From positions 1 to 36,491 of the IMG/VR virus record IMGVR_UViG_3300048998_000331: DNA of 36,491 nucleotides; one strand, 5' to 3'. Under the pieces are notes generated by a model that saw only the letters and a program-made list of their open reading frames with translations, had not been told where the DNA came from and made no database searches. Each line of letters starts with the position of its first letter. Position 1 is the stretch's first letter. This DNA comes from a virus. Its lineage: Duplodnaviria > Caudoviricetes. The position numbers were made by a program, and so were the translations under genes. This document shows positions 19,437 through 24,038 of the stretch, piece by piece.

Positions 19437-19598
19437 AGGGAGGCAGGCGAGCGGCCGAAAGCCCTGTTTCCGGGGCTGTTCTGGGCTCGGATTGGCTGCC
19501 TCCCCGCCTCCCTTACCCAGGGTTACCACAGGTGGGGCCGGGGGATGCGCTGCGGGGAGCCGCTTGGGGAGAACTCCCCGCCTCCCCGCAGCCTCCCC
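19437..19598. repeat. Cluster of GGGGAGGC-like 8-mers directly after traB (candidate clt)
   Basis: GCCTCCCC at 19498, 19580, 19591; GCCTCCCT 19506; AACTCCCC 19572; inverted AGGGAGGC 19437, GGGGAGCC 19554, GGGGAGAA 19566. Confidence 0.6.
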
Positions 19599-21758
19599 CT
19601 ACTCGACGGCTTCCTCGTCGCGCTCGGCGAGGGCTTCCAGCACGCGGTCGCGGGCGATGGTCGAGACGCCGTGGGACTTGTACGGCTGCGCCCCGTAGGG
19701 CTCCAGAGCGGCCGTCAGGTCGTTGAAGCTCCAGTCCCGGTAGGCGGCCGGGTTGAGCGCGGCGAGGCGGTGCAGCACCTCCTGGGAACGCACCCGCGGG
19801 TCAGCGCCGAGGACCGCGGCGATGTCGGCGAGGTGGTCGGCGGGTGCGGCCGGGTCCGTCACGGGTGCGGCGGCCGGCGTCTGCCCGTTGCGTAGGGCCA
19901 TGGCTCGCTGGACGACGGGGGTCACCTGGTCTGTGCCCGACTCCTTGCGGACGTAGTAGGAGCGGATCAGCTCGAACGGCTTCTTCACGAAGCCCACGGT
20001 CAGCGCGGTGCCGACATCCTCGGCCGGGTTGAGGTTGGTCGCGGTGATGCCCGCCTTGTGCTTGCCCGTGCCCAAGAGGCCGTCGTTGGCGACGTGGTCG
20101 CCGACCGCGAACGCCACCCGGTTGGAGGTGTTGCGGGTGACGTCCTTCGGGATGCTGTCGGCGGTCGGGGAGACCGTCACCCAGATGATGGTGATGCCCA
20201 CCTTGCGGGCCTTCTTCATCGCCTTGATGGCCAGTTCCTCGGCCTCGGCCTTGTACTTCTTGTGCATGAACAACTCATGGCACTCGTCGTACACCACGAT
20301 CTTGGGGCGCATCCGCGGGTCCCGCTCGGCCAGTTCCCGGGTGAGTTTGGTGTCTTCGCCGCCCAGCGACTCCAGCAGCTTGCCGCGCAGGGTCACGTCG
20401 TCGACCAGGTCCCGCAGCGATTCGAGGGCGGCCTCGATCTGCTCGTCCTCGTCGCCCTTCACCAGAGCCTTCAGGCGGGGCTTCATCGGGTCGTAATCAA
20501 CGTTGTACGCCATGACGTACACCTCGATCTCGACCAGCGGATCGAGCATCGCGCCCAGCAGCAGGCTCACGACCAGCGAGGACTTACCCGAACCCATGAT
20601 GCCGCCGATCATGTAGTTGCAGGCCATGAGCTTGCCGAACACCGGCTCCCCGCGCTGCGATACACCCACCGGCACGCCCTTGAAGTAGTCGGCGGTGCCG
20701 TCGGTGAGCAGCGGCCACGGCGGGACCGGACCGGACAGCGACCCCTGGTCAGCGACCCACAGGTCCATGACGCTGGGCTGGTCGCGGGGCTGGGTGGGCC
20801 ACACCTCGACGGGAAGCCGGGTGAGGTTGTGGGCGAGTACGGGCTTCTTGCCGTTGACCATTTCGACGGTGACGCCGAGGGGCAGCTGCAGCTGGCTGTG
20901 CCAGCCGTTGCCGAGGCGGGTTGTAGGGGACATCCAGCGGGGCTGCCAGCCGTCCTTGAACGCCTTGTTCAGCGCGGGGATGCCCAGGTGGCGCAGGGCG
21001 TCGAGGATGGCGCCCTCGTCGGGGACGACGGCCCGCTTGTCCCGCTCGGCTTCGGGTAGCGCCCACTGGGGTGCGGCCTGCCCACGGCGACCGGTGTTCC
21101 ACAGACCGAGGAACGCCAGCCACGGCGCGAGGAACACCGCGGGGCCCCACACGATGCTAACGATGACGACGGCCCACCGAATCGCGTCGATGGTGAACAT
21201 GACGGGTGCGATGACCTGCGTCGGGTCCTTCTCGGCGATGGCCATGATGACGCCCAAACCGAGCAGTCCACCAGCCGTGGCCGCCGTGCCGACCGCGGCA
21301 CCCTTGGCGATCTGCAGCGGCGCCTTCAACAGGTCCATGCGGCGCTGGTGGCGCTGCTGCCGGAACGTGGCGGCGCGCTGCTCCCATTCGAGGGCCACCT
21401 CGTGCTGACCCGCGGCCTCGGCGGAGCGCATCATCCGCTCGTGCCGGGCGACCGTGCGGCCGTCCCAAGCGCGCTTGGTGACGATGCGGGTGCCACCGAC
21501 GACGTAGGCGCCGTGACGGACCGCCAGGCGGCCGGCGGTACGGGTCCGGTCGTGGGTGGCGATGACGCGCGCCCGCCGGGCTGACCTGATCAGCAGGTGC
21601 CGTCGAACGGGCTGGTCAGCGGCAGGGGTCCGGGCTGGTGCGGACCCTTTCTCGCCGTCTGCCGGCGCCGGGTCCTTGAGGAGGCTGACGGGTTCGGGCC
21701 GGTGGTCGTCGAGGCGGTGGAGCGTGCCCACGTCGGGCTCCGTCGCGGTATCGGTCAT
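19599..21758 (-). CDS. traB: TraB-like FtsK/SpoIIIE DNA translocase
   Basis: 719 aa: N-terminal TM helices, Walker A GGIMGSGKS, Walker B IVVYDECHEL, KARKVGI, RVAFAVGD; Pro/Ala linker and C-terminal helical (wHTH-like) domain; GGAG RBS. Confidence 0.85.
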   Translation of the reverse strand: MTDTATEPDVGTLHRLDDHRPEPVSLLKDPAPADGEKGSAPARTPAADQPVRRHLLIRSARRARVIATHDRTRTAGRLAVRHGAYVVGGTRIVTKRAWDGRTVARHERMMRSAEAAGQHEVALEWEQRAATFRQQRHQRRMDLLKAPLQIAKGAAVGTAATAGGLLGLGVIMAIAEKDPTQVIAPVMFTIDAIRWAVVIVSIVWGPAVFLAPWLAFLGLWNTGRRGQAAPQWALPEAERDKRAVVPDEGAILDALRHLGIPALNKAFKDGWQPRWMSPTTRLGNGWHSQLQLPLGVTVEMVNGKKPVLAHNLTRLPVEVWPTQPRDQPSVMDLWVADQGSLSGPVPPWPLLTDGTADYFKGVPVGVSQRGEPVFGKLMACNYMIGGIMGSGKSSLVVSLLLGAMLDPLVEIEVYVMAYNVDYDPMKPRLKALVKGDEDEQIEAALESLRDLVDDVTLRGKLLESLGGEDTKLTRELAERDPRMRPKIVVYDECHELFMHKKYKAEAEELAIKAMKKARKVGITIIWVTVSPTADSIPKDVTRNTSNRVAFAVGDHVANDGLLGTGKHKAGITATNLNPAEDVGTALTVGFVKKPFELIRSYYVRKESGTDQVTPVVQRAMALRNGQTPAAAPVTDPAAPADHLADIAAVLGADPRVRSQEVLHRLAALNPAAYRDWSFNDLTAALEPYGAQPYKSHGVSTIARDRVLEALAERDEEAVE

Positions 21759-22506: not shown

Positions 22507-22818
22507 TCAGCGGCGGCGGATGTCCTTGTAGATCCCGTAGACGACCAGCGCGACCAGGGCCACGGATACGGCGGCGATGGCCAGGGCGACCGCAGCGAAC
22601 GCCACGGTGACCATGAACATCGAGCCCGCGATCCCGATCCCGATCCACTTGCCGGCCTCGCCCGCCCGCTGCTGCGGTACGGGCGCCGGGGGCGGTACGG
22701 GCTGCTGGAGTTGCTGCACGATCGCGGCGGTCTGCAACGCGGCGAGGACCGCGGCGTAGGTCTCGCCCTGCCGGGCGGCGTCGATGGCGTCCTGCGACGC
22801 CTTGCCCAGGTCGGTCAC
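22507..22818 (-). CDS. SpdD-like small membrane protein
   Basis: Pro/Gln linker, long hydrophobic hairpin (WIGIGIAGSMFMVTVAFAAVALAIAAVSVALVALVV), basic tail; coupled to upstream gene. Confidence 0.6.
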   Translation of the reverse strand: MTDLGKASQDAIDAARQGETYAAVLAALQTAAIVQQLQQPVPPPAPVPQQRAGEAGKWIGIGIAGSMFMVTVAFAAVALAIAAVSVALVALVVYGIYKDIRRR

Positions 22819-24007
22819 GGCAGGTACCTCTTCAGCTCGTTCTGGATGCGGGTGGCCCGGTCCTGGCCGATGGAGTAGCGGCCCCGCAGATCGCGGATGG
22901 ACGGCACGCGGTCATCGATCAGGAGGTGGAGGTAGTCGTTGCGGGCGCGGGCGGTGAAGGTGTCCTCACCGGGCGGCGGGGGGCTGTCGTCGTCGGGCTC
23001 GGGTACGTACTCGACCCGCACCTCAGGGCGGGTACGCGGCTGCTCGGAGGCGAGTACGCCGGCCGATACGGCGCCCACCGAAGCCGCCGCCGGGGACAGT
23101 TCCGAGTCGGGCCCGGGTACGCCCGCGAGGATCTGCGGGTACGCCTCGGCGTGTACCTCGGGTACGGGCTGCGGGGCGGGTACGCGCTCCACGGTGACCG
23201 CGGAAGCGACCGGTTCGGGCTGCTGCTCCCACGGTGCGGTGAGCGCCATCGAGGCGAGCGAGCCCGCGCCCCGGTACGCCGCGATCCGGTCCAGGAGTAC
23301 GGCCCGCTGGGCTTCGAGTACGCCCGCGTCGGTGCGGTCCACGGCCACCGCGAGGCGGTGGCGGGCGCGGCTGAGACGGTACGGGCGGGCCTTGGCCGTT
23401 TCCAGGTCGGCGAGGGTTGCGGCCCGGCGGGTGGCGATGCGGGTCCACCGGTCGCGGGTGATCTGGGCAGCGTCCCGGCCCCGCACGGCCAGGCCGAGGC
23501 GGGACAGCAGGCGCTCGCGCAGCTCCCTGACCAGGATCGCGGGCAGCGATTGGGAGTCGGCGCCGGGCTTGGTATGGCGCAGTTCGATACCCATGGCCAG
23601 GTGCCACAGCAGCGCGGCGCAGACCGGCCCGAAGAACGCCCGGACCGTACCCGCGACCGGGCCGGTCTCCGAGTACGCCGGGATGACCTGTACTGCGGTC
23701 ACCACCCAGACGAGTACGCCGGGCGTACCCGGGGCGCCCAGAACACGGAGGTTCTGGCGGGCCATCATCGCCATCGCGAACAGCGCCACCTCGGCGGCGG
23801 CGAACATGACGACCCGCTCGGTGCCGCTGGCCATCCCGAGGTGGTCACGGGCGAACCGCCACGAAGTGTCACCGGAGTACGCGGTGCACAACAAGGCGGC
23901 AGCAGCGGCCACGACGACCGCGGCGGGGGTGCGGCGTACCGCTCGGAGTACGAGGGCCAGTACGCACCCGAGTACGGCGAGTACACCGGCCAGGTACACC
24001 GGGGTAC
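22677..24007 (+). repeat. Dispersed, polarised (G)RGTACG repeats inside spd-like genes
   Basis: Hand count of 26 GTAC cores in 23003-24007, of which 18 are RGTACG on + and 4 inverted; two more at 22677 and 22695. Confidence 0.85.
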
Positions 24008-24038
24008 GCGCCAGCTCGGCGAGGGTGGGCAGGTTCAT
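22815..24038 (-). CDS. SpdB2/DUF2637-like multi-TM spread protein with C-terminal winged helix
   Basis: ATG at 24038 after GGAG; about 5 TM segments, Arg-rich helical region, Pro-rich linker, then PSIRDLRGRYSIGQDRATRIQNEL. Confidence 0.7.
   Translation of the reverse strand: MNLPTLAELARTPVYLAGVLAVLGCVLALVLRAVRRTPAAVVVAAAAALLCTAYSGDTSWRFARDHLGMASGTERVVMFAAAEVALFAMAMMARQNLRVLGAPGTPGVLVWVVTAVQVIPAYSETGPVAGTVRAFFGPVCAALLWHLAMGIELRHTKPGADSQSLPAILVRELRERLLSRLGLAVRGRDAAQITRDRWTRIATRRAATLADLETAKARPYRLSRARHRLAVAVDRTDAGVLEAQRAVLLDRIAAYRGAGSLASMALTAPWEQQPEPVASAVTVERVPAPQPVPEVHAEAYPQILAGVPGPDSELSPAAASVGAVSAGVLASEQPRTRPEVRVEYVPEPDDDSPPPPGEDTFTARARNDYLHLLIDDRVPSIRDLRGRYSIGQDRATRIQNELKRYLP

Follow-up and report, generated by a model that had tools for sequence, protein, structure and literature searches.

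Why the coding sequence of a prophage membrane-protein gene is crowded with a single four-base core, and what might read it, is the question raised by this locus. The window is the whole of the IMG/VR record IMGVR_UViG_3300048998_000331 (36,491 nt), in which terminase, portal, capsid, tail, endolysin and integrase genes are present. Over positions 1-36491, a complete siphovirus gene set and an integrase accompany TraB and spd-like genes, which is the content of a phage/conjugative-element hybrid. TraB and packaging genes co-occur in 11 surveyed long-flank loci. The array-bearing gene is a gene of a Streptomyces-type prophage.

The gene (22815-24038, minus strand; 1,224 nt, 407 aa) lies on the same strand as traB and 1 kb upstream of it. 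It encodes hydrophobic helices, a helical region, a disordered linker and a C-terminal helix-turn-helix (HTH). The hydrophobic helices (residues ~14-153; 23580-23999, minus strand) likely form four membrane helices, an approximate count from hydropathy and from model helices with a pLDDT of only 45-76. The predicted disordered linker (residues ~278-355; 22974-23207, minus strand) has a pLDDT below 50. The C-terminal three-helix HTH (22818-22970, minus strand) is confident in the model; it is FtsK-gamma-like without a wing, and its helix 2 reads SIRDLRG. A small hydrophobic gene lies downstream (22507-22818, minus strand), and a TraB-like FtsK/SpoIIIE gene (719 aa), likely not the reader of the array, occupies 19599-21758 on the minus strand.

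The spd-like gene has 1,494 homologues at E ≤ 0.001, and the named ones are from Streptomyces and Actinacidiphila. Pfam and PHROG scans gave no family for the 407-aa protein, and no match to it was found among cultured phages. Plasmids gave 12 partial matches, and the one inspected, pRVR2, is without an array. In the nearest Atlas cluster, 10% of members contain DUF2637. No ParA or ParB family was found among the 29-32 window ORFs scanned, a subset of the ORFs. The preliminary description called the gene spd-like. The label suits the architecture and the location of the gene upstream of traB, as well as the tail modules, which also occur in SpdB/DUF2637 proteins. For the membrane domain, homology to SpdB2 or DUF2637 could not be detected (no Pfam match and, with shallow alignments, no profile match).

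The coding sequence contains 27 GTAC cores. Recounting 23003-24007 gives 26 copies in two clusters of 13, in agreement with the earlier hand count, and the extra copy is at 22824. The 3' cluster (23001-23382) spans the linker together with the last part of the helical region, and 9 of its 13 cores read G(A/G)GTAC on the plus strand. The 5' cluster (23647-24007) falls in the membrane-domain coding part, where 7 of 13 cores have this form on the plus strand. When the window is divided into 1-kb bins, 23001-24000 contains 25 GTAC and each of the 36 others contains 0-8. Two further copies, both GGTACG, are confirmed in the downstream gene at 22677 and 22695. The background of 2-3 per kb assumed by the first count is too low; the 19 other genes of the window have 3.8 per kb. 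Outside spd-like genes, the highest count among 3,451 1-kb windows is 18. The codon phases given for the 26 copies (15/7/4) were reproduced, and the 27 copies fall 15 times as GTA-C, 8 times as nnG-TAC and 4 times as nGT-AC. The tallies of 18 RGTACG and 4 CGTACY on the plus strand were also reproduced. The core is GTAC as first described; the corrected consensus is G(A/G)GTAC, with 16 copies on the plus strand and 3 on the minus strand.

The excess is not explained by the protein sequence or by codon usage. In 5,000 synonymous recodings with the codon usage of the window, GTAC occurs 5.22±1.79 times (maximum 12), and when the synonymous codons already present in the gene are shuffled, the count is 12.5±2.3 (maximum 21), versus 27 observed. 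Each cluster is enriched alone (12 copies vs a null of 1.76 in codons 1-130; 13 vs 2.40). In the 5' part, Val is written GTA in 9 of 12 cases when C follows and in 0 of 16 before other bases; gene-wide, 15 of 16 GTA codons precede C. Codon bias as the cause is ruled out by the recoding null and by this C-dependent usage. The outer flanks of the copies are no more alike than random (identity 0.321 vs 0.305±0.013), so the copies arose via separate substitutions and duplication is ruled out. Assembly error is ruled out as well, since one contig, possibly from the source sample itself, crosses the region without differences. The codon-aware excess, the context-dependent GTA codons and the non-duplicated flanks support the original proposal that selection acts on the DNA and has produced a hidden cis-acting array.

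The array was also described as polarised. This is true within the gene, where 16 of 22 possible sites are used in one orientation versus 3 of 12 in the other (p 0.012). Family-wide, the orientation bias (0.58 vs 0.38) is about the same size as in control genes (0.06 vs 0.03), so the bias does not demonstrate selection on orientation, and strand polarity is mostly a coding constraint. Possible word sites number 21.5 per gene in the tail class of the window and 10.5 in controls. The protein sequence of the linker is shaped by the DNA word, which offers a reason for the odd low-complexity linkers in spd-like genes.

Relatives of the gene were drawn from three collections. Of 172 matched genes, 151 are complete, 149 are without ambiguous letters and 131 remain after dereplication at 90%; L096, L101 and L149 were dropped as apparent frameshifts, leaving 128 training genes. 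The membrane domain is conserved among them, and the tail falls in many classes, with 35 label changes on the membrane-domain tree. The preliminary description had raised the question whether the over-represented words of homologues co-vary with the C-terminal HTH. They do: linker words track tail class across the 128 homologues. The word of a class, chosen from these same 128 genes, occurs at ~10-44 per kb in its own linkers, and off-diagonal values are mostly below 5. About half of the family bears a strong array (66 of 128 genes vs 2 of 97 controls; best-hexamer score, log10p<-4).

Within one 34-gene clade, the membrane-coding part contains 5-8 GTAC in the five genes with GTAC tails and 0-4 in the other 29. 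In the QLREI, LSRREA and SVRETA classes of the training set, 5' enrichment is absent. An independent-pairs test on the membrane-domain tree is not significant (median p 0.25 and 0.5) and is underpowered, with only 5 pairs. No word enrichment occurs in the 2 kb upstream of the training genes. Four genes (L060, L072, L090 and L092) keep GTAC copies in the 5' part and have the tail and linker word of another class; they are likely recent tail-cassette swaps. The QLREI class (L017, L089-L135) has very dense GGGGACC arrays, and genes for a WhiB and a MobA-type relaxase adjoin the gene in 15 of 15 long-flank loci.

The tail class of the window comprises 46 genes, and its words follow single residues of helix 2. 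Tails of the IR type, with helix 2 [IVFY][RK]xx[KR], accompany GGGTAC 5-24 times in 30 of 30 genes (expected 0-2). Those with an LRxxQ helix 2 accompany GGATGC 5-16 times and GGGTAC at most once (11 of 11 genes). With VAxxK, GGTAGC is gained and GGGTAC retained (3 of 3 genes), and two L..K tail genes favour GGGTGC. When the helix-2 code positions are masked, the tail tree (60 columns) places the VA and IR states each on both sides of the deepest split. This pattern suggests that one helix-2 change arose twice, convergently.

The tail weakly resembles a wingless FtsK-gamma domain. The FtsK-gamma Pfam family is matched by 17 of 36 members of the tail class, all below the cut-off (best E 0.0012); the window tail scores E 0.018 and 15.2 bits (cut-off 30.6). 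Among PDB matches of the tail, 6 of 8 are FtsK (best E 0.0039). Fold searches with the full model and the tail gave nothing at E ≤ 0.001; Foldseek ranks FtsK-gamma 2-4 at E ~2, and the best VIA Z of 4.0 is uninformative. Helix 2-turn-helix 3 aligns with that of FtsK-gamma (SIxxxQR..RIGYNRA vs SIRxLK..xIGQxRA), and, as in FtsK-gamma/KOPS (PMC3384302), a short motif co-evolves with the domain. Unlike FtsK-gamma, the modelled tail ends after three helices, without a wing or an ATPase motor, the scores are weak, and the sites are clustered in one gene.

The same tails occur on other membrane domains, including DUF2637. These genes form a held-out set, none of which matched the training membrane profile. 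From 113 loci, 109 are complete and 97 remain after dereplication; 63 of these could be classed, 32 have no known tail and 2 are unclassed. Predictions for the IR and LRQ types were recorded before the loci were fetched, and the other class words were kept as fixed earlier. The predicted word ranks best of 11 motifs in 52 of the 63 genes; taken one at a time, only 31 of the 63 genes have p<0.01. Agreement is complete for IR (6/6), LRQ (12/12), SGADIG (7/7) and LSRREA (17/17), and weaker for HTH17 (6/11), QLREI (2/3), TTGQMT (1/4) and SVRETA (1/3). Two IR-type genes prefer GGATAC. The membrane-coding part is enriched in three of the five classes tested (IRK p 0.0013, LRQ 3e-11, SGADIG 4e-6), and downstream DNA is enriched for the class word in four classes. 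The 600 nt upstream of the held-out genes show no word enrichment. Enrichment in the membrane-coding part and beyond the gene speaks against linker and tail simply being inherited together, except in the classes without 5' enrichment. Co-variation with tail class, helix-2 residues and the held-out families together favour the earlier suggestion that the array is a site for the protein of the same gene, and it is quite likely, judging from these sequence patterns, that the tail binds the words of its own gene directly.

The array had alternatively been proposed as a clt-like locus recognised by TraB. The proximity of traB, 1 kb downstream, is consistent with this, as is the description of clt loci as short direct repeats in PMC4447253 and PMC3583192. 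In 5 of the 9 such training loci, though not in the window, the word also extends into traB at its 5' end. These loci (L020, L022, L070, L091 and L097) have a second GTAC cluster within the initial 150 nt of traB, which encodes GTPVPAVPEQPGTP at the N-terminus of TraB. However, with a profile from the TraB of the window and at least 5 kb of flank on both sides, a TraB-like gene was found within 5-10 kb in only 10 of 26 GTAC-class loci and in none of the 15 QLREI loci searched, counts in which a missing gene could sit beyond the flanks or escape the profile. TraB C-terminal types and array words combine without any fixed pairing, and identical C-termini accompany different words (L059/L091, L154/L148). 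The array also lacks the format of clt, which is a compact locus of conserved 8-bp direct repeats; it is a degenerate 6-bp word at irregular spacings (4-268) over ~1 kb. A separate repeat tracks TraB. Directly behind the traB stop (19438-19597, minus strand), GGGAGGC/GCCTCCC repeats lie at 19438, 19498, 19506, 19580 and 19591. GGGAGG occurs in 5-8 copies behind traB in 9 of 9 loci with the TraB type of the window and in 0-2 copies in 29 others, and a CTAG-containing word lies there in 16 of the 18 loci that have another TraB type. The known repeats of pSVH1 and pJV1 are likewise located behind traB. Since the repeat tracks TraB type and matches this location, 19438-19597 is the likely clt, a candidate for this TraB type. 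The reading of the array itself as a clt for TraB is very improbable. Behind traB of other types are CTAGCA, CGGTTTC, GTAGAG or GGCAGTG, which points to a TraB-clt code.

The array co-varies with tail type and helix-2 residues and is independent of TraB. The main rival to membrane tethering, the role favoured below, is a transcription roadblock, in which the protein, bound to its own gene, blocks transcription and so caps the level of a membrane protein that could be toxic, as well as that of the downstream transfer genes. The co-variation fits this equally well, sites occur in the gene body and downstream, and SpdB2 is reported to form pores (PMC4447253). Against it, the upstream DNA (600 nt, 2 kb), the usual location of an operator, is not enriched, and 20-40 scattered, irregularly spaced sites exceed the needs of repression; we consider it unlikely. 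Less likely still, there is no protein reader, and the words are low-complexity linker features that move together with the tail in a single cassette, or else some other co-inherited factor reads them. This would account for the concentration of copies in the linker beside the tail, the classes without 5' enrichment, the non-significant pairs test and the vestigial GTAC left in the 5' part after the apparent swaps. It does not account for copies in all three phases that use rare codons and are not duplicates, for words that appear in other genes and where unrelated families encode their membrane domains, or for words that shift convergently with single helix-2 residues. The neighbouring genes also vary among phage, TraB and relaxase contexts, which counts against this reading. 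Two other candidate readers were rejected. The tail profile matches KorA weakly, and a GntR gene of the TraR/KorA type is near only 4 of 26 GTAC-class loci. The parts of the literature consulted show no link to Gbn, a GATC binder.

An own-gene binding site is known from SpdA2 of pIJ101. SpdA2 binds sps inside its own gene, and synonymous removal of sps lowers segregational stability, according to PMC4170104. The array is alike in lying inside the coding sequence of its inferred reader. The same source describes SpdA2 as a small soluble protein with 1-3 conserved 12-bp palindromes shared across plasmids, whereas here there is a membrane protein and 20-40 six-base words whose sequence varies with the element and the tail. 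No 12-bp sps palindrome and no SpdA-type small soluble protein were found for the array and protein of the window, and tail profiles missed SpdA2. The arrangement would be an own-gene binding site as in SpdA2/sps, joined here to Spd-like membrane proteins. The tail of pIJ101 SpdB is common to two family members. In L060, L072 and L174:2735-3610, an SpdB-type tail accompanies CGTCAC/CGTGAC, which is one half of the sps palindrome.

The SpdB2/SpdB proteins (pSVH1, pJV1, pIJ101; DUF2637) also combine hydrophobic helices with a C-terminal HTH-like tail near traB, and homologues are reported on phages (PMC4447253). The tail of window-type genes is also present on DUF2637 proteins. Unlike for the window gene, the available part of that source describes no intragenic array for SpdB2. 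Arrays are nevertheless found in spdB2-type genes of pJV1, pSN22, pWTY27 and three related plasmids (GCTCAC 14-19 vs ~2; GCGAAC 16 vs 2.7). In pJV1 spdB2, GCTCAC occurs 16 times vs 2.0 expected, apart from the mapped clt repeats. No array was found in the spdB2 genes of pSVH1, pSG5 and pFP11 or in the genes of phiSASD1, Dubu and OnionKnight, so not every such protein needs one. The membrane domain of the window gene matched none of these plasmid and phage proteins, with or without an array. TraB/clt is similar in that a short-repeat cluster marks element DNA for a membrane-bound protein, with clt mostly outside genes, behind traB and following TraB (PMC4447253, PMC3583192 and PMC12857230). The window array differs in being intragenic and degenerate, in following another protein and in occurring without TraB. 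The literature search covered few subscription papers, and the original SpdB2 and TraB publications lay outside it; it gave no account of tail-matched intragenic arrays in spd genes.

We lean towards a reading, by analogy with Spd proteins, in which the protein holds on to its own gene and so anchors the DNA of the element at the membrane, in the service of spread or segregation. The ~20-27 G(A/G)GTAC-type words would be putative sites for the C-terminal HTH. Such a 6-mer turns up roughly once per kb in any DNA and would gain specificity from the clustering of sites and from oligomerisation of the membrane protein. Co-translational insertion into the membrane beside the gene may assist this. 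With sites and reader in one gene, linker-plus-tail cassettes could be swapped as self-consistent units, after which point changes would build up sites in the membrane-coding part and in downstream genes. Excised circular element DNA might be kept at cross walls or tips for mycelial spread or segregation, alongside TraB where it is present and without it elsewhere. A much wider reading is doubtful. It would hold that a "self-addressing" module is common to phages, plasmids and relaxase elements of actinomycetes: a membrane channel with exchangeable DNA-reading tails and the address in its own gene. One tail would derive from FtsK-gamma, lacking the motor and following a code at the level of residues. 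Each element, TraB-less prophages included, would bring no DNA but its own to the cross-wall pores and would need no virions to spread through the mycelium, and the array would supply the cis element still missing from the picture of intramycelial spreading.

For the choice of DNA by Spd proteins, TraB/clt is the only known specificity step, and the one protein studied, pSVH1 SpdB2, has been reported to bind DNA non-specifically (as cited in PMC4447253). The present data point to a second, independent specificity layer in coding DNA, including that of the classical plasmids pJV1 and pSN22. The tail/word pairs provide a small natural protein-DNA code, and a candidate clt is provided for the TraB type of the window.

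The GCTCAC-array spdB2-type genes of pJV1 and pSN22 are at L173:926-1742 and L298:5361-6444; the annotation of the pSN22 record splits the gene in two. Next after spdB2 comes a gene annotated as encoding a Pycsar effector family protein (L173:1778-2221; L299:3086-3529). GTAC-rich kilobases (11-16 copies) also occur far from the studied gene in L062:2501-3500, L093:2501-4000 and L094:16001-17500, and these are possibly further genes of the same kind.
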